A stretch of 64,000 bases of DNA from positions 90,892,001 through 90,956,000 of the forward strand of contig OZ024746.1 of NCBI GenBank assembly GCA_964016885.1, in the 5' to 3' direction. Of this stretch, positions 13,857 through 63,499 are shown one piece after another. The notes under the pieces are model-generated. The model was not told where the DNA came from and made no database searches. It saw nothing but the letters and a program-made list of their open reading frames with translations. The translations under genes and the position numbers were made by a program. The first letter of the stretch is position 1; every line of letters starts with the position of its first letter. Origin of the DNA: Eledone cirrhosa (Eukaryota).

Positions 13857-14059
13857 AGTGAGGTTTTTTTACAAACTGAAAAAAAGACGATGTGTCCTAC
13901 ACGAGTGTAAGTAGAGCGAAAAAAAAAAATGAAATCGAAAATGCAACTGGAGTCTTTTTTCCTTATATATATTTTTCCTTATATAAAAGAGTGGCTGTGG
14001 TCTTACTACCGTATTTTAAATCTATTGGACGCCAATGTACGTTTTTTTTTGTTGTTGTT

Positions 14060-14640
14060 GTTACCTATGACATCGCATATGTATACGTTTTTGTCCATCA
14101 AACATTTGTTTTCCAATAGGAAAATATCCTTGTTTGTGCAGTTGCACAGTGCCCCACTACGGACATGGGTTTCGGAAGTTGTTGACTTATTCAGTTTAGG
14201 GATGTTTAGGTTGACTATGTTCCTAGCTAAATTAGGTGTTGTTGAGTAGGAAGGTCTAACAGCGTTCCTCTTAAAGCTTGTATAGTGTTGTGTGGGAAAG
14301 TGTTTATTTAATAATTTGAAGAAGATCCCAGCGGTGTTGACGCCTCCCTGTTAAAGGGGGTTGTACCAATTAATCTGCCTATTTCTATTAAGTGGTCTGA
14401 GTGTGCTGGCGGTAATCTTGTCCTTAAAGCCGCTGCGAGTTAGAGGCTCGTTGTAGCAGGGGCCAGATGTTCTAAAGATGTCTTTATTATCTGAAAGATT
14501 CGAAATTTTAAGGGATACGCTCCTAACAAGATTATAAGTAATATTTTGGGCGTGGTTAACATATAAGGAATCCGTTAGGTTTGTGGTAGGGGTAGTAATG
14601 GAGGGAAGTTGCTAAATCTAAAATAATGTCTAGAAAATTT
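14060..14640 (-). pseudogene. Naiad-type Penelope-like element fragment (RT C-terminus and linker)
   Basis: Frameshifted minus translation: NFLDIIL..PYHKPN...RNRQINWYNPP...KHFP...RNAVR.SYS..PNL...CNC.NK...CL...VY. Confidence 0.7.
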
Positions 14641-15774
14641 GTCCTAGTTGTGTTTGATTCTATAGTGATCCTACGGAAGAAGGTATGTAGGTTTTACTGA
14701 AACTCACCAGTGGCTCTGGGGTTCACTCTTTGCAGAGAGACCGTTGTCGTAGTCCCCAGGAATCCCGGCGAAGAATTACTTCACCCCCCCCCCCCCCTCC
14801 ATATATAATGATGACATGAAACTATCAAATAGGACCGACATCACTCCATAATTAAGTCAGTATCATTGGGACACCAACCCAGGACAATTAGAGTGGACAC
14901 CTATCTGTTAATTAGTGAGAAAAATGACTCCGTGCGGGTAGAAAATTTGATATTCTGGCCTCGCACCAATGTATTAGTTTCTGGGACTCCATCTGTTAGC
15001 GGCAGTCCAGATGCAACTACCCTGCACAGATATTAGGTAGTGTTAGTACACATCACGTAAGTGACTAAGAATCGCGTCTTCAACGAGGATTAGCCTCTCT
15101 GGATAGTTTGGACCAGCTATCCGTCACATTACTCCGATGAACATCGGCCGTTGTAACAACCTTAACTTTCTGTGGCACCTTACTTGATACCAAAGAGGAG
15201 GTAAGCTAGTCCTGACCGTCATATATGTATGTGTGTAATTATTCATACGCGTGCGTGTGTGTGTGTCTGTGTGTATTTACACGTAAAACTGTGAATGGGT
15301 TCCCTCTCTGAACCAGTCGAATGTGAAGTGATAAGAAGAGCTGAAATATCCAGGGAAGTAATGAATCGGGTTAGAAACATATTTTCTACAGCTCCAGCTT
15401 TACACAACTCAGTCACTTTAGTAACAGAAAGTCTTCATATGTTCAAAGAGATTATTATAAACGGCTGAAGTCAACTATTTTCATTCCTACTTCAAATGAC
15501 ACTTAAAAAGGTTAATGAGATTGAAGAAAGACTCCACTTCCCTACTCACGTGCAAGTCTTATAAAATTTGGCTAAAAGTGCTCCTTTTCACGTGGATGAA
15601 TGAATTAAATCGGGGGTAATATAAGACATGGTGTTATTTCCCATGGCTATAAATCAAGAGGAAGAGATCTGGGGATCCCCTAAGCTTAGTAAACTTGTAC
15701 AAGCACCTTATTCAAGCGAACCAGAAAGCTGCTAAATCTTTCTTTAAATGTATCGTCTTTGAAAAGCAATTTAT

Positions 15775-16966: not shown

Positions 16967-17039
16967 GCCTCCGTGGCCCAATGGATAAGGCACCGGCCTC
17001 CTAAGCCGGGGATTGCGGGTTCGAGTCCCGTCGGAGGTA
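16967..17039 (+). tRNA. trnR-CCT: tRNA-Arg, anticodon CCT
   Basis: 73 nt; acceptor GCCTCCG/CGGAGGT, anticodon arm CCGGC-CTCCTAA-GCCGG, T-arm GCGGG-TTCGAGT-CCCGT, intact A and B boxes. Confidence 0.97.
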
Positions 17040-24158: not shown

Positions 24159-24449
24159 TATATATATATATATATCCGTGTGTGTGAGAGAGAGGGAGAT
24201 AAAGATTGCTGATTGGCGGAAGTTTTGCTAATGTAAGAGAGACATATGTGCTCCATAACTGAATTTAGTAGTAAAATGTGGATATTAAAATAATTACTGG
24301 AAAATGAGAAATATTTATTAAAGTTAGGAATTTCAGAATCAGTTTATCGCACAACTGAGCAGGATTGTTTCAAACATTAGCTTTTGCCCTTCCATGCTGG
24401 AATTACTCAAACCATCTAGCTAGCTATCTCTCAATCTATCTATTTATCT

Positions 24450-25490
24450 CGACTGGCACATCGAATGTGCTCAGGCGCTCACAGTCCTCTGGCAAACGGA
24501 CCCGGCGATCAGTGGAGACTCCACTTCGACATTATAGAGGGTTGATCCGCAGCAAGTGCGATGACACGCTCGGAGAAACTTTAGGCGTAGAGGAGGACGA
24601 ACTGGCCAGTCTGTTCGGTAGGACCTTCCACCCGGGACCAATGGACAACTTCCAAAAGTCCCTGGCCTGGCAGTGCTACCGAGGAGCTCTACCAGTTCGA
24701 GACAAGCTCTACAGACACGGGCGCCCGGGTAGGGACCCTTCGAAAAAGATTTGTCCGAGATGCGTGCGCGACGCCCTGGCAGAGATCCTGCCAAAAGGAC
24801 CTGTCCAAGATGCGAGCAGGACATCGAAACCGTTCTGCACGCAATTGTACAGTGCCCAGGTGTGACCGACCTATAGAATTATGTCGAACAGCTACTGTCA
24901 CGTGTGGGACGCATCCAGTTGTCAGCCGAGTCCATCGCGAGGATCACCCCGCCGCCTTCATTTAAGAATGAAGGAGAGGCGGTTTTCCTTTGTCTGGTGG
25001 CTTTGGTGAAAGAGGTAATATGGTTGACGAGATTAAAAGGACTGAGGGCAAACACTTTTCTCTCCGGACAACAATTCATCCCCTTCTTTAAGTACCACTT
25101 CAGAAGGAAGGTGAGAGTGGAGAGAGAGGTGCTACACCCCAGTAAATTCGCTGAAAAGTGGGTGAATGTGACGAAAATGGCCCGAGTGAATGGGCTTTCT
25201 CTGTATATAAACCTGTAGGTTGAGGAAGATAAATAGAGGGAAGACGGGAACACCTACAAAACGTGTTCCTGGTATTGAGGGTTGTTCTATACAAGGGGTG
25301 TAAAACAACCCCGTAGTAACGTTAGAAATCCCCATTAGGGGGTGGGGGCTAATGGGAATTTCGATTATTTTTTTTTTATATATAGTTTATTGTTATTCAT
25401 CATTGTTAAAGATTTTATATAAAACCCCCGCCGTCACGTCTTGTAATGTCCCATTTTTGTACGCGCATGTGGCAAATAAAGAAAGATATC
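24450..25490 (+). mobile_element. 3' fragment of L1/Tx1-like LINE (same family as 1-814)
   Basis: QKSLAWQCYRGALPVRDKLYRHG..CPRC..; GRIQLSAESI...KMARVNG; frameshifted; AATAAAGAAAG end. Confidence 0.85.
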
Positions 25491-38622: not shown

Positions 38623-38675
<53 letters not shown>

Positions 38676-38805
38676 GAGGTTATATTTAATTTGTTGGGAT
38701 ACAACAAGCAAAATATTTTTATAACTGATATAAAGCACTCAACAAATTATTGGAGTAAATATACAATATATTAACAAATGGAAACTATATTTATAAAACC
38801 ATATT

Positions 38806-38871
38806 TATTTCATTATACATATTTCAAGGGCCACCAGAGCAAACTATGGTGCGCTTTCATCAGATAAAATA
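38806..38871 (-). ncRNA. Type I hammerhead ribozyme (mirror copy)
   Basis: Reverse complement of 39041-39106. Confidence 0.8.
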
Positions 38872-39040
38872 TAATATAGGCTAGTTTTATAAATAAATAT
38901 TGACATACCCTTAAAAAATGCAACCATTCTGGTTGGAATCTCTCTGGTTGGAATCTCCTGACTATCCAGGAGATTCCAACCAGAATGGTTGCATTTTTTA
39001 AGGGTATGTCAATATTTATTTATAAAACTAACCTATATTA

Positions 39041-39106
39041 TATTTTATCTGATGAAAGCGCACCATAGTTTGCTCTGGTGGCCCTTGAAATATGTATAAT
39101 GAAATA
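39041..39106 (+). ncRNA. Type I hammerhead ribozyme
   Basis: TATTTTAT CTGATGA AAGCGCACCA..TGGTGGCCCTT GAAA TATGTA TA ATGAAATA. Confidence 0.8.
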
Positions 39107-39146
39107 AATATGGTTTTATAAATATAGTTTCCATTTGTTAATATAT

Positions 39147-39191
<45 letters not shown>

Positions 39192-39196
39192 CAGTC

Positions 39197-39247
39197 AGCT
39201 TCCTGATAATTTCTCACGAATGAAACAGTTCTAGTCCTGTAGAAGCT
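39197..39247 (+). ncRNA. Compact type I hammerhead with G8>A core change
   Basis: AGCTTC CTGATAA TTTC tcac GAAT GAAA CAG ttctagtc CTG TA GAAGCT; 6-bp stem I, 4-bp stem III. Confidence 0.7.
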
Positions 39248-39271
39248 TTTCTATATTAATATATATATATA

Positions 39272-39716
39272 TTTATAAATAAAATAACAGGAGGCTGGAC
39301 TGGTGTAAATCCTTGAAAAGTTTATTATGCCATGATCATTTCAATGATCGGATTCCGTATGAGGTCGTATGAGGGCGACTGACCAAGGTGAAAGCAGCTA
39401 GTTGGTCAGTCGTACTCTCTGTCGTCCTCTCGGACCCATGGATTTTATATATTCCTTTGTTATATTTCGAATACCTGATGATATCACCGGATTCATACGG
39501 AACCCGGTCATTGAAATGATCATGGCATAATAAACTTTTCAAGGATTTACACCAGTCCAGCCTCCTGTTATTTTATTTATAATAATTAATTCCGTATTAG
39601 AACCACCAACTACACAAACGAAGACGCGTGAACTGCACTACGTTGAGTACTCTCCATAATATTACATCAAGATTGACCATACGGAATGACCAGTTCTATC
39701 CAGTGGTGAACCTAAA
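39272..39716. mobile_element. Fold-back HHR element (family H2), copy A
   Basis: Arms ~39273-39362/39493-39582 plus extension to 39716; HHR at 39471-39528. Confidence 0.8.
39471..39528 (+). ncRNA. Hammerhead ribozyme with cleavage triplet mutated (H17=G)
   Basis: ATAC CTGATGA T ATCACCGG..CCGGTCAT T GAAA TGATCA TG GCAT. Confidence 0.65.
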
Positions 39717-39875
39717 TATATATATATATATATATAACAAAGAAAGTGTGGTAAGATACCAGGTAGACGCTCCAGAGTACTTGATACTTAGGGTAATAGA
39801 GTGGGTAATATGAACAGATTCAGGACCCCGATGGCTGAGCTCCGGCCGTTTCGACAGCTATAGCTGAATCTTTCC

Positions 39876-39902
<27 letters not shown>

Positions 39903-39906
<4 letters not shown>

Positions 39907-40010
39907 GCGACTCCTCCCACACACGCATATGAATATATATGATGTGTTTGTATGAGTAATATGCAAACACATCATATATATTCATATGTGTGGGAGGAGT
40001 CGCTATATAT
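39903..40010. repeat. Short palindrome; one arm recurs at 41234-41290
   Basis: ATAGCGACTCCTCCCACAC...GTGTGGGAGGAGTCGCTAT. Confidence 0.85.
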
Positions 40011-40154
40011 ATTAAATTGTTAAACAATATTCAATGATTATGTCAAAGAATGAGTTTTACAGTAGATTGGAAGCACTCAACGGAAAAAATATTTTTCTGG
40101 AGTTATTAATATTAAAATATAAGTATTAATAAAATAGATGTTCTTTTGATCAAT

Positions 40155-40213
40155 TACATTTTATTATACATATTTCGGATGTACAACAGTACGTCCTCAT
40201 CAGACAAAATATA
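40155..40213 (-). ncRNA. Type I hammerhead ribozyme (mirror copy)
   Basis: Exact reverse complement of 40311-40369. Confidence 0.85.
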
Positions 40214-40310
40214 ATGATACATGACATACCCTGAGATGTTAAATGGTTAAGATTTAATTTTGACCATTAAATCTTAACCATTTAACATCTCAGGGTATGT
40301 CACGTGTCCT

Positions 40311-40369
40311 TATATTTTGTCTGATGAGGACGTACTGTTGTACATCCGAAATATGTATAATAAAATGTA
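40311..40369 (+). ncRNA. Type I hammerhead ribozyme, intact core
   Basis: TATATTTTGT CTGATGA GGAcGTAC tgtt GTACaTCC GAAA TATGTA TA ATAAAATGTA; 10-bp stem I. Confidence 0.9.
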
Positions 40370-40715
40370 ATTGATCAAAAGAACATCTATTTTATTAATA
40401 CTTATATTTATATATATATATATATATATATGGGAAAAGATTCAGCTATAGCTGTCGAAACGGCCGGAGCTCAGCCGTCGGGGTCCTGAATCTTTTCCTA
40501 TATATATATATATATATATATCTTAAGGTTTGTTGGTTCACCACTGGATAGAACTGGTCATTCCGTATGGTCAATCCTGGTGTAATATTGTGAAGAGTAC
40601 TCAACGCAGTGCAGTTCACCCATCTTCGTTTGTGTAGTTGGTGGTGCGAATACGGAGTTAATTATAAATGAAATAACAGGAGGCTGGACTGGTGTAAATC
40701 CTTGAAAGGTTTATT

Positions 40716-40773
40716 ATAATATGATCATTTCAATGACCGGGTTCCATATGAATCCGGTGATATCATCAGGTAT
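40716..40773 (-). ncRNA. Hammerhead ribozyme (mirror copy)
   Basis: Reverse complement of 40950-41007. Confidence 0.7.
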
Positions 40774-40949
40774 TGGAATATAACAAAGGAATATGTAAAA
40801 AGCCATGGGTCCGAAAAACCATGGGTCCGAGAAACGGAGGGCGGCTGGCTGTGAAGCTAGTTGGTCAGCCGCCCTCTCTGTCTCTGGTTTCTCGGACCCA
40901 TGGTTTTTTCGGACCCATGGCTTTTTACATATTCCCTTGTTATATCCCA

Positions 40950-41007
40950 ATACCTGATGATATCACCGGATTCATATGGAACCCGGTCATTGAAATGATC
41001 ATATTAT
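40950..41007 (+). ncRNA. Hammerhead ribozyme with palindromic stem III (ATGATCAT)
   Basis: ATAC CTGATGA T ATCACCGG..CCGGTCAT T GAAA TGATCA TA TTAT; first stem I pair mismatched. Confidence 0.7.
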
Positions 41008-41099
41008 AATAAACCTTTCAAGGATTTACACCAGTCCAGCCTCCTGTTATTCCATTTATATATATATGTATCTATGTATGCATGTATGTATGTATGTAT

Positions 41100-41470
41100 G
41101 TATGTATGTATGTATGTATGTGTGTATCTATGTATGTATGATTATCATTGTGTGTGTATGTGTGTAGCGCACGCTCGATGTGGATTTGTAACTGTCGTCT
41201 GGTATGTGTAACCCACACAAATACCTACAAGAAAGCGACTCCTCCCACACACATATGAATATATATGATGTGTTTCTATGTATAATATGCATATAGGTTC
41301 ATGTATGTGAGTGTGTGTGTTGGATAATGTCTTTCTTGTAGGTATTTGTGTGGGTTACACATACCAGACGACAGTTACAAATCCACATCGAGCGTGCGGC
41401 TACACACATACACACACAATGATAATCATACATACATAGATACACACATACATACATACATACATACACA
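41100..41470. repeat. Inverted repeat (~135-bp arms)
   Basis: 41100-41235 vs 41330-41470 (CACGCTCGATGTGGATTTGTAACTGTCGTCTGG and its reverse complement). Confidence 0.85.
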
Positions 41471-41744
41471 CATACATACATAGATACATACATACATACA
41501 TACATACATACTTACATAGATACACACATAGATAGATAGATACATACATACACACATACACACATACATACATAGATACATACATACCTACATAGATACA
41601 CACATATATACATACATACCTACATAGATACATTCGTAGATACACACATACATACATACATACATACATACATACATACATACACATGTAAGCCCTCCAA
41701 GTGACAGGGTTTGAGGAGATAAGAAATGGAAGAGACAGGACGTT

Positions 41745-42387
41745 GAATATTATATGGTGTGTGTGTGTGTGGTTAGATGAATATGTTTACTAAACACACG
41801 TATATGGTGTGTGTGTGTGTGTGTATGTCTGGTTAGATGAATATGTTTACTAAACACACGTATATGGTGTGTGTGTGTGTGTGTGTCTGGTTAGATGAAT
41901 ATGTTTACTAAGCACACGTATATGGTGTGTGTGTGTGTGTAGTTAGATGAATATGTTTACTAAACAAACGTATATGGTGTGTGTGATTGTGTATGTGTCT
42001 GTAGTTAGATGAATGTTTACTAAACACACGTATATGGTGTATGTGAGTGAGTGTGTGTGTGTAGTTAGATGAATATGTTTACTAAACACACGTATATGGT
42101 GTGTGTGTATGTCTGGTTAGATGAATATGTTTACTAAACACACGTATATGGTGTGTGTGTGTGTGTGTAGTTAGATGAATATGTTTACTAAACACACGTA
42201 TATGGTGTGTGTGTGTGTGTAGTTAGATGAATATGTTTACTAAACACACGTATATGGTGTGTGTGAGTGAATGTGTGTGTGTGTGTGTGTATGTAGTTAG
42301 ATAAATATGTTTACTAAACACACGTATATGTTGTGTGTGTATGTGTGCGTGTAGTTAGATGAATATGTTTACTAAACACACGTATAT

Positions 42388-42427
<40 letters not shown>

Positions 42428-42575
42428 TGGTTAGATGAATATGTTTACTAAGCACACGTATATGGTGTGTGTGTGTATGTCTGTAGTTAGATGAATATGT
42501 TTACTAAGCACACGTATATGGTGTGTGTGTGTGTGTGTGTGGTTAGATGAATATGTTTACTAAGCACACGTATAT

Positions 42576-42607
<32 letters not shown>

Positions 42608-42643
42608 TGGTTAGATGAATATGTTTACTAAGCACACGTATAT

Positions 42644-42678
<35 letters not shown>

Positions 42679-42833
42679 TTAGATGAATGTTTACTAAACA
42701 CACGTATATGTTGTGTGTGTGTGAGTGTGTGTGTAGTTAGATGAATATGTTTACTAAACACACGTATATGGTGTGTGTGAGTGTGTGTGTGTGCGTGTAG
42801 TTAGATGAATATGTTTACTAAACACACGTATAT

Positions 42834-42891
<58 letters not shown>

Positions 42892-43312
42892 TGTGTGTAG
42901 TTAGATGAATATGTTTACTAAACACACGTATATGGTGTATGTGTGTGTGTGTATGTCTGTAGTTAGATGAATATGTTTACTAAACACACGTATATGGTGT
43001 GTGTGTGTATGTCTGTAGTTAGATGAATATGTTTACTAAACACACGTATATGGTGTTTGTGTGTGTGTGTGTGTGTGTGTATGTCTGTAGTTAGATGAAT
43101 ATGTTTACTAAACACACGTATATGGTGTGTGTGTGTGTATGTGTGTGTGAATGTCTGTAGTTAGATGAATATGTTTACTAAACACAAGTATATGGTGTGT
43201 GCGTGTGTGTGGTTAGATGAATATGTTTACTAAACATACGTATGAGGCGTGTGTGTGTGAGTGTGTGTGTATGTGTGTGTGTAGTTAGATGAATATGTTT
43301 ACTAAACACATA
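41745..43312. repeat. Composite minisatellite: ~25 copies of a 35-bp core separated by variable (GT)n
   Basis: Core GTTAGATGAATATGTTTACTAAACACACGTATATG. Confidence 0.95.
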
Positions 43313-43339
43313 CAGGTATACTTACACGCTTACACACAT

Positions 43340-43520
43340 GGTGGTGGTGGCGGGTGGTGATGGTGGTGGTGGTGGTGGGTGGTGATGGTGTTGGTGGTGA
43401 TGGTGGTGGTGGTGTGTGGTGGTGTGGTGGTGGGTGGTGATGTTGGTGGTGCTGGTGCTGGTGCTGGTGGTGGGTGGTGGTGTGTGGTGGTGGGTGGTGG
43501 TGGGTGGTGGTGTGTGGTGG
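43340..43520. repeat. (GGT)n-rich simple repeat
   Basis: Direct inspection. Confidence 0.9.
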
Positions 43521-43673
43521 CTTTTTTCGCTTAGGTGGTTAATGGCTTCTTAACCATCCTCTCAGTTTTGTATGGCCCTTTTAACTTGTGTTTATTGCAC
43601 TGGTATCTTCGTATCCATTGAGCGCTTGACAACACAAATCGGAAGTTGCCTTTCGCTAATTTCTACTCGCTAA

Positions 43674-43707
<34 letters not shown>

Positions 43708-43747
43708 GATATTAAATAAATGGAAACTATATTTATAAAACCATATT

Positions 43748-43813
43748 TATTTCATTATATATATTTCAGGGATATCATATTAAAAATATGTTATGCCTTC
43801 CTCAGACAAAATA
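43748..43813 (-). ncRNA. Type I hammerhead ribozyme (mirror copy)
   Basis: Reverse complement of 43933-43998. Confidence 0.82.
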
Positions 43814-43932
43814 CAATATAAACAGTCTTATAAATAGATAGATTCGACATACCTTTCAACATCGACTTTTCAAATTGAAGTCGATGTTGAAAGGTATGTC
43901 GAATCTATCTATTTATAAGACTGTTTATATTG

Positions 43933-43998
43933 TATTTTGTCTGAGGAAGGCATAACATATTTTTAATATGATATCCCTGAAATATATATAATGAAATA
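43933..43998 (+). ncRNA. Type I hammerhead ribozyme, intact core
   Basis: TATTTTGT CTGAGGA AGGcATAaCATATT ttt AATATGaTATcCCT GAAA TATATA TA ATGAAATA. Confidence 0.85.
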
Positions 43999-44144
43999 AA
44001 TATGGTTTTATAAATATAGTTTCCATTTATTTAATATCGTAAATATACTCCAAATACTTGTTGAGTGCTTTTATATCAGTTATAAATATTTACTCGTTGT
44101 TAACCCAACAATTTAAATAAAACTTTGCATATATATATATATAT

Positions 44145-59381: not shown

Positions 59382-59436
<55 letters not shown>

Positions 59437-59528
59437 CAAAGAAAGTGTAAGGAACCAGGTAGACCATAGCACACCAGAGTACTCGATACTTAGGGTAGTA
59501 GAGTGGATAAGAGGAAAAGAGTCAGGAC

Positions 59529-59591
<63 letters not shown>

Positions 59592-62445: not shown

Positions 62446-62484
62446 TTCAAAATATTAATAAATATAGACATTCACGTAATCAAA

Positions 62485-62556
62485 ATATATTTTATTATAT
62501 ATATTTCGGAGGTACTGTGTTGCTTTCTCAGTACGTCCTCATCAGATAAAATATAT
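62485..62556 (-). ncRNA. Type I hammerhead ribozyme, intact core
   Basis: Minus: ATATATTTTAT CTGATGA GGAcGTACTG..CAGTACcTCC GAAA TATATA TA ATAAAATATAT; 11-bp stem I. Confidence 0.9.
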
Positions 62557-62631
62557 AAATTGATGTCTGACATACCTCAACTGTACTGATGGTTCAATTC
62601 CAGTCTTGGCAGTGATTAGTTACAACAAAAC

Positions 62632-63190
62632 TCAATATTTATATACCATATGTACTAACATGACAAACGGGCATTTAATGCAGTAAATTAGATTTCTGCT
62701 TTTGCAGTTCATATTTGCATTTGGGAATATTTTTCCAGTTTTTGTTTTCATATATTGACCGGCGTGTATGGGTTGACATGTGCCACATCGACTATCATTG
62801 CATTTAGATACAGTGAATGATTGGTCTTTGTTGTTAAGGTCAAACTTTGCTTTTGTTAGTAATTGCTTCAAATTTTTCTGCTGTCTTTTACTAAGAGTCA
62901 AAGATCGATCTGTGATTAAGCCTTTTAATTCATTACTTTGAGCAATGATCGGTAGGTTTGCTTTGGCAGTGTTGAAGATATTCTGGTGACATGGGTTGTG
63001 TGTCATTATAAATGGTATAACCAGTTCTTGGTTTCTTCTTCCTTGGGTTGTCCTAAGTTGTTGTATAGGTATTTTTATAGCCCGCTGTATGCCATTTTCT
63101 ATAAGTAGAGATGGGTATTTTTGTTTGAGCAAAAATTCTCTTAGTTCTGTTAGGCGTTTGTACCTGGTATTCGTATCTTCTACAATGGTA
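62632..63190 (-). pseudogene. Penelope RT thumb, Cys-linker and start of GIY-YIG endonuclease (truncated)
   Basis: L.QKYP..LIE.GI.RA...IPFI.T.NP...KRQ.KNLKQLL.....KC...RC.TC...NCKSRNLIYCIKC. Confidence 0.85.
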
Positions 63191-63499
63191 CAAATACGAG
63201 TAACAGGTACAAACGCCTAACAGAACTAAGAGAATTTTTGTTCAAACAAAAATACCTATCTCTACTTATAGAAAATGGCATACAGCGGGCTATAAAAATA
63301 CCTATACAACAAGGTATATATGTGTTTTGGTATATATATGTTTTGGCAACTTTTCACGATGTGGCTCAATGGAGAATTAATAAATTAAATAATCAGAGCA
63401 AAATACTATAGAGTAAAGCACGTCCAGAGAATTATTTGATAATATATATACATCATCTCTACTCCCAATCAGCATAATTAACCACACAAAAAAATCAAT

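Follow-up and report, generated by a model that had tools for sequence, protein, structure and literature searches.

A stretch of 64,000 nucleotides from the 3.0-Gb genome of the octopus Eledone cirrhosa (assembly GCA_964016885.1, contig OZ024746.1, positions 90,892,001 to 90,956,000 of the forward strand; hereafter the window, numbered from its first letter) harbours, between 38672 and 44130, five short inserts that are designated here E1 to E5. These inserts are very probably independent insertions of 5'-truncated ends of Penelope-like elements (PLEs), in each of which an arm bearing a single-copy tail and a tail-less arm lie head to head in (TA)n. The original prediction had offered two readings of the five inserts: a palindromic analogue of retrozymes, moved as a discrete unit, and stereotyped abortive PLE insertions. 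The second is supported by the identity of the arms to PLE 3' ends. The first is not supported: the fold-back points vary between copies, and longer PLEs carry the arms as their 3' ends.

Anatomy of the inserts and their parent elements

Inverted repeats are present at all five of the predicted positions, each accompanied by a one-sided single-copy extension, the tail, and (TA)n flanks both sides of E1, E2, E3, E4 and E5. The two arms agree at 179 of 180 positions in E1, 88 of 90 in E2, 145 of 150 in E3, 162 of 166 in E4 and 169 of 170 in E5. A near-perfect repeat had been described for all the inserts and is found in E1, E3, E4 and E5; E2 as a whole is asymmetric, its 90-bp arms enclosing ∼130 bp of single-copy sequence. 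The tail measures ∼91 nt in E1, 134 in E2, 93–100 in E3, 143 in E4 and 89 in E5: the predicted range of 90–135 bp is exceeded by E4.

Palindromes within AT-rich microsatellites are known to cause difficulty in genome assembly, and the inserts could in principle be fold-back artefacts of assembly or of long reads. This explanation can almost be dismissed: the arms differ from one another at 1–5 positions, the tail-less end and the tail end are fixed across dozens of loci, a regularity not to be expected of a read artefact, and the same layout has already been published for PLEs (PMC8557442).

A descriptor of the type I hammerhead ribozyme, applied to both strands of the whole 64 kb, gave eight matches. 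Six of these are the two arms of E1, E3 and E5; the others are a related single arm at 62496-62545 and a loose match at 2461-2533. A full hammerhead on each arm had been claimed for four inserts and stands for these three. E4 contains a hammerhead core in both arms, yet does not satisfy the descriptor: U.U closes stem II, and in both arms the first pair of stem I is broken by TAT, the reading in 97 of 107 distinct family records being TAG. E2 has CUGAUGA in one arm only and its cleavage site reads UG. A search of the window against Rfam brought no hammerhead match, either at the gathering score or at E<=10; the matches admitted by E value were microRNA-precursor models that fit any hairpin, all below the gathering score. 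Exact hammerhead patterns of 34–43 nt returned 1465, 800 and 638 matches genome-wide and none with each of the reversed controls, and these counts are far above chance.

Three of the inserts lead to coding elements. E3 is 94–98.5% identical to the ends of a long copy, L123, in which a frameshifted open reading frame (ORF) for reverse transcriptase (RT) and endonuclease (EN) lies between two direct hammerhead copies, with a tail on the first only. The ends of L268 and L269 match E5 at 97–99% identity, and L268 contains an open frame of 748 aa, P0001. For E1 the match, at 98.9–99.5%, is with the ends of two long copies, L319 and L322, in which ORF pieces 71–79% identical to P0001 are located on the same strand ∼1.4 kb upstream. 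The parents of E1 and E3 are known as broken ORFs, and P0001 is the one intact ORF. Two direct hammerhead copies around the ORF, the partial tandem of hammerhead-bearing pseudo-long terminal repeats (pLTRs) that characterizes EN-bearing (EN+) PLEs, occur in L123, L268 and L269 and were not seen for the E1 parent; the tandem units measure 3850, 3868 and 4047 bp.

P0001 has 23 homologues at E<=1e-10, one of which is annotated RVT_1, and its atlas neighbours, at 0.96–0.99, carry RVT_1, GIY-YIG and HTH_animal families on some members. Its motifs are RWR45 (RWK in homologues), DKT126, YRDD360, CNCRDRSKC607, IIY..YVG626, CDLC705 and CRH732; a CCHH cysteine pair is absent, a single Cys being present between the IIY and YVG motifs. 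The protein displays the arrangement of EN+ PLEs, a single ORF with RT and, at its C terminus, a GIY-YIG domain. The sequences identify E1, E3 and E5 as 3' ends (pLTRs) that belong to three PLE families with RT plus GIY-YIG.

Judged from their motifs, the parents probably belong to the Hydra clade. They share with the published outline of that clade (PMC8557442) the order RT then GIY-YIG, the RW(R/K), DKT, CxxC and CxH motifs, a CxCx5C linker, the lack of CCHH, a canonical 3' hammerhead in which U.U often closes stem II (here in E2/E4), and (TA)n targets. Hydra elements in that outline are mostly shorter than 3 kb, a tendency rather than a strict criterion, whereas the units here span ∼3.85–4.05 kb with a long 3' untranslated region (UTR). 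The hammerhead of Hydra-1_Obim, a cephalopod family, differs from those described here (PMC8557442 supplement). An assignment to the Nematis/Neptune clade was set aside in favour of Hydra on the motif list of PMC8557442.

E2 and E4 lead instead to an ORF-less family. Their long relatives include a head-to-tail unit of 1964 bp (L274), whose longest stop-free frame is 83 aa and for which Rfam returned 0 matches. The same interior is entered by 27 of the 30 read-through loci examined (77 matches in total). A PLE protein in register with the interior was found in none of these 30 loci; the single PLE protein match starts 589 nt away, in a locus whose sequence differs from the interior. E2/E4 copies are mostly dispersed and truncated, and the family has in common with the coding families the stem-loop and the CACT word discussed below. 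Sequence comparison thus identifies E2 and E4 as ends of a linear non-autonomous PLE-type family, present in many copies. A non-autonomous family had been predicted and this one exists, its unit being a linear head-to-tail element of ∼1.96 kb and not a palindrome.

Non-LTR retrozymes were reportedly described by Cervera and De la Pena in 2020. Elements of that name are non-coding and PLE-derived and carry a type I hammerhead, in broad likeness to the E2/E4 family (bioRxiv 10.64898/2026.07.22.740005); they are tandem direct repeats with a hammerhead per unit, whereas the window inserts are inverted and the E2/E4 unit measures ∼1.96 kb. The hammerhead matches listed are mostly single or inverted, unlike the tandem direct repeats of retrozymes. 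The Hydra sheet of PMC8557442 holds no ORF-less derivative of ∼2 kb.

Fixed 3' ends and variable junctions

Copy structure was surveyed in the first 100 matches, listed by position, of each of the three exact patterns. For the E3 family the sample consists of all loci behind these matches, namely 80 loci (four duplicate records merged) with 115 hammerhead arms, in stretches of 1.5–10 kb within which long partners and partners of less than 25 nt were missed and a few distant pairs are possibly unrelated. The 3' ends fall at two sites: a single base accounts for 50 of them, and a further 58 lie on two bases ∼100 nt beyond. A tail arm and a tail-less arm lie head to head in 49 of the 80 loci, which is the inverted 5'-truncated copy with a one-sided tail known from EN+ PLEs; of the remainder, 17 show the tail-less end only, 13 the tail end only and one neither. 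Two E5-family palindromes, L203 and L278, bear a tail on both arms and are exceptions to the one-tail rule.

The junctions, by contrast with the 3' ends, are not fixed. Among the matches listed, 18 inverted pairs of the E3 family have 18 different spacings (88–3321 bp) and 30 pairs of the E5 family have 24 (43–6783 bp; spacings entered by hand), the modal spacing occurring in five. The original prediction had raised the possibility that all copies share one fold-back point and the same ends; the ends are shared, in so far as the 3' ends are fixed at two sites, and the junctions and arm lengths vary, which is largely the outcome that the prediction had named as a mark of ordinary truncated PLE insertions.

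This variation bears on a different scenario, in which Inr-anchored (initiator-anchored) perfect palindromes are transcribed internally and re-mobilized as whole hairpins, making up a discrete palindromic non-autonomous element. Full-length matches to whole elements would suit it: all 40 of the best 40 of 1908 for E3 and all 40 of the best 40 of 965 for E5, with 22 of the best 40 of 2554 for E4. So would the locus L032, which is 98% identical to E4 along its full length and has different flanks, and the modal E5 pairs, four of the five having a perfect GTAC-centred junction. However, the BLAST sets were chosen for likeness and still contain 28 distinct junctions in 29 loci (the repeat being one locus recorded twice) and 28 in 30. 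The discrete families suggested by whole-element BLAST were rejected as a product of score bias, since the exact-pattern listings show variable spacings. Two variant backgrounds carry the GTAC junction, which recurs in the E3 family; convergence on TA microhomology, given a fixed 5' end, would lead to this. None of the five window elements has the modal junction. Moreover, inserted copies are without the stem-loop that lies past the tail end, so that a copied palindrome would likely lose its tail. The fixed internal structure common to the copies of a fold-back element or a miniature inverted-repeat transposable element was not found. Re-mobilization of whole palindromes is accordingly very unlikely, and independent insertion of PLE ends remains the preferred reading.

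The layout agrees with that of canonical EN+ PLE insertions, for which head-to-head arms, a one-sided tail, Inr-like TCACT, AT-rich targets and a tail equal to the interval between two RT start sites are on record (PMC3846280, PMC8557442, PMC11167929), the tails here being 89–143 nt against the published 30–40. An inverted 5'-truncated copy with a hammerhead on each strand is listed for Penelope-13_HM (PMC8557442 supplement), and pairs of hammerheads on opposite strands, 100–700 bp apart and probably derived from truncated PLEs, have been reported together with dispersed motifs likewise tied to truncated PLEs (PMC4209133).

How the two arms may arise

The 5' ends of the E3-family arms lie at -64 from the hammerhead core in 19 of 115 arms, at -55 to -66 in 46 and at -67 to -116 in 9. 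The base at -64 is the A in TCACT, which has been termed Inr-like within a pLTR (PMC3846280). Arms ending from -10 to +1 of CACT, compared with those ending from +2 to +50, number 19 versus 1 of 57 in the E5 family (a set including 10 loci picked for short spacing), 17 versus 3 of 38 in the E1 family (a BLAST-selected set) and 7 versus 2 of 34 in E2/E4. In every window element one arm ends 0–9 nt from CACT. In the E1, E3 and E5 families a TATA-like word precedes CACT by ∼24–31 nt (read by hand), and GGTATGT, a candidate splice donor, lies downstream of CACT in E1, E3 and E5; candidate AGs are present as well. Introns have been described across the pLTR boundary of Chlamys-3 and in the 5' UTR of Penelope (PMC8557442). 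A splice joint was not seen in contigs of four sequencing runs from one study; such contigs cannot reveal transcription starts, and the result speaks neither for nor against this arrangement.

Arm lengths provide a test of how the inversion arises. Directly adjacent pairs filled 29 rows, two of which, from L149, were spurious, leaving 27. The tail-less arm reaches further 5' in 17 of these pairs and the tail arm in 4, the two being equal in 6; in 17 of the 27 neither arm contains the other, so that simple fold-back copying fails unless the centre was deleted later. This result is pertinent to an alternative that accepts the same PLE origin and derives the inverted arm from one cDNA that folds back and copies itself, by self-priming, the template possibly being antisense, a proposal of Arkhipova et al. 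2013 (PMC3846280). The copied arm must then lie within its template, which is the relationship missing from those 17 pairs. Short palindromes and nested hairpins at many junctions do favour self-priming, as do private variants common to both arms: UG is found in both arms of E2 only, and 5, 3 and 3 variants are private to a locus in three families. Both 3' ends are nevertheless fixed; deletion of the centre after insertion could partly mimic the evidence against self-priming. On balance self-priming is unlikely.

Variants shared between the two arms of a locus number 19 in one family, against a mean of 2.7 (maximum 9) in 2000 shuffles of 30 pairs. The corresponding values are 5 against 0.27 (maximum 3) in a second family, for 25 of 30 loci, and 46 against 8.1 (maximum 35) in a third, for 18 of 22 loci. 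These figures suggest that both arms of a locus derive from one source. Junction overlaps of 1–8 nt are common.

Stem-loops are predicted 5–7 nt beyond each 3' end. Past the first site the stem is ACTC/GAGT in all four families; past the second, GCTC/GAGC is predicted in the E4 and E5 families and was unseen for E1. In the anole PLE (PMC11167929) cutting and extension take place on both strands of the target, RT begins internally, at two sites that bound the tail, and requires sequence downstream of them, a dimer is predicted, and hammerhead cleavage is protein-assisted and dispensable.

Dual priming from the RNA of one element is a route to which we give about an even chance. Transcription would begin at the A of the Inr-like CACT in the upstream pLTR. 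The element protein would nick both (TA)n strands, possibly as a dimer, as predicted for the one PLE studied in vitro, and reverse transcription would start internally, 5–7 nt upstream of each of the two RCUC...GAGY stem-loops. The two cDNAs would terminate independently of each other, in many cases on reaching the RNA 5' end; their 3' ends would then anneal via microhomology, followed by fill-in. The double hammerhead would be a by-product of these events, and mobilization of the ORF-less family would take place in trans. It is an evenly balanced proposition, in other words, that the fold-backs, thousands in number, record PLE integration, with a dimeric enzyme binding two RCUC...GUUGAGY stem-loops and priming a cDNA at each, on opposite (TA)n strands, a strong-stop-like run to the RNA 5' end, and joining by microhomology.

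A number of observations weigh against this account or the PLE assignment underlying it. One arm type only was present in 30 of the 80 E3-family loci, within the stretch examined. Conversion between the arms after insertion could also yield shared variants. The second stem-loop is imperfect in the sole E3-family copy that reads through, the pattern used to find stem-loops partly selects its own count, and copies are not independent of one another. The E2/E4 family fits less well than the others: the CACT pile-up is weaker (7 of 34 arms), GGTATGT is absent, the TATA-like word lies ∼53 nt upstream of CACT (read by hand), and a coding partner was not found among 30 of the 77 read-through loci. 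The composition of the E5 and E1 arm sets, noted above, counts in the same direction. As for the parents, Pfam and PDB sequence scans of P0001 gave nothing significant, and membership of the Hydra clade is a judgement from motifs.

The origin of the inverted PLE structure has been named an open question (Craig et al. 2021, PMC8557442), and the later steps of integration were left unvalidated (Frangieh et al. 2024, PMC11167929). In the literature searched, which comprised sources other than Repbase and key subscription papers, the CACT pile-up, the arm-length argument, the repeated stem-loop and an ORF-less Hydra derivative were not found.

Ribozymes, hairpin RNA and other features of the window

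The hammerheads resemble the minimal type I motifs of metazoan PLEs in their long helix II and short palindromic helix III, and differ from schistosome motifs in stem I, which is 8–12 bp in E1, E3 and E5 against 4–5 bp (PMC4209133). Low activity and the need for a dimer were reported for such motifs in the same source. Predicted folding energies are -205 to -361 kcal/mol for whole elements, which form perfect helices of 75–180 bp, and -7 to -16 for hammerhead monomers. Whichever strand is read, transcription reaches the antisense arm first; as the hairpin is also predicted to be far more stable, read-through would likely silence the ribozyme. Competition of this kind between double-stranded RNA (dsRNA) and ribozyme folding had been anticipated: it follows from the anatomy, and the preference for the hairpin depends on predicted folding. 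The same long, stable helices are what a hairpin-RNA or ribozyme system retained by the host to supply Dicer or ADAR with dsRNA would exhibit. Such folding follows from any inverted repeat, though, and the inserts match the ends of coding PLEs at 94–99% identity or an ORF-less relative at 86–95%, are situated among other repeats with the same (TA)n target, and have damaged hammerheads in two cases of five. A host function of this sort is highly improbable.

The coordinates of the five inserts and of the ORF-less unit are collected below.

Features of inserts E1 to E5 and of the long ORF-less relative (window positions, except for the last row)
Feature	Position	Strand or arms	Remarks
E1	38672..39150	tail-bearing arm -, tail-less arm +	fold-back end, putative autonomous PLE family (long copies L319, L322)
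E1 tail, interval between two fixed 3' ends	38672..38762	-	predicted stem-loop ACTC...GAGT at 38737-38756
E1 type I hammerhead motif, left arm	38814..38863	-	descriptor match
E1 type I hammerhead motif, right arm	39049..39098	+	descriptor match; upstream splice-donor-like GGTATGT at 39003-39009
E2	39272..39716	tail-less short arm 39273-39362 (-); long arm and tail on +	core at 39475; putative asymmetric fold-back end of ORF-less ∼1.96-kb PLE derivative (L274), 87-92% identity to L274
E3	40011..40410	tail 40011-40103 on -	predicted stem-loop 40075-40103; putative autonomous PLE family, long copy L123
E3 type I hammerhead motif, left arm	40165..40203	-	descriptor match
E3 type I hammerhead motif, right arm	40321..40359	+	descriptor match; GGTATGT at 40294-40300
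E4	40520..41058	tail 40520-40662 on -	predicted stem-loop 40599-40658; same ORF-less family as E2
E4 hammerhead cores	40769, 40954	-, +	first stem I pair broken in both arms; 86-95% identity to L274
E5	43705..44130	tail 44042-44130 on +	predicted stem-loop 44047-44066; putative autonomous PLE family with intact ORF (L268, P0001)
E5 type I hammerhead motif, left arm	43756..43805	-	descriptor match
E5 type I hammerhead motif, right arm	43941..43990	+	descriptor match; GGTATGT at 43893-43899
ORF-less unit	L274:2980-5060 (G000:C1:221883000-221885100)		GC-rich interior patch

Between 38600 and 41450 the window contains at least eight short inserts, which represent about six families and are chained via (TA)n, and similar chaining of different PLE ends is seen in many other loci. 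A fifth dispersed family is represented at 39730-39878, 40433-40501 and 59429-59534, with a fixed tail-less end, a tail of ∼80 nt, a variable fold-back and (TA)n flanks. No hammerhead core was seen in it (best 40 of 4009 candidates scored), and it may be the end of a PLE that lacks hammerheads, for instance a Naiad. Two related fold-backs lacking a hammerhead occupy 39907-40003 and 41140-41425; a pattern search, and a DNA search that skips very common words, showed them nowhere but in the window.

Further PLE-related sequence is present outside the cluster. A piece of RT/EN resembling P0001 is located at 13985-14672 (-). A single hammerhead-bearing arm at 62450-62576 (-), 72–75% identical to the E3 family, ends in (TA)n, and an endonuclease-proximal PLE-like fragment at 62635-63216 (-) has its end near this arm. 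Other features comprise a minisatellite at 41750-43310, with a repeat of ∼52–70 nt, a variable (GT)n core and more than 20 copies, and a tRNA gene at 16967-17039 (+) (Rfam RF00005, 63.8 bits). Two stretches at 61-531 and 24359-25215 (+), with zinc-knuckle-type motifs, we take to be C-terminal fragments of ORF2 of a long interspersed nuclear element (LINE).

An inverted copy with a tail, hammerheads on opposite strands and (TA)n targeting are already published features of PLEs, and the value of the Eledone inserts is mechanistic rather than that of a new element class. What they add is three coding families, apparently of Hydra type, and one ORF-less derivative; together these families supply base-exact starts and stops, a candidate RNA signal at both starts and a simple arm-length test. 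The genome is seeded with long hairpins that may serve as dsRNA substrates if they are transcribed. Were dual priming to prove correct, one model would cover the tail and the inversion as well as the surplus of copies that consist of a pLTR only, and the same pair of stem-loops would serve the 2-kb ORF-less family.

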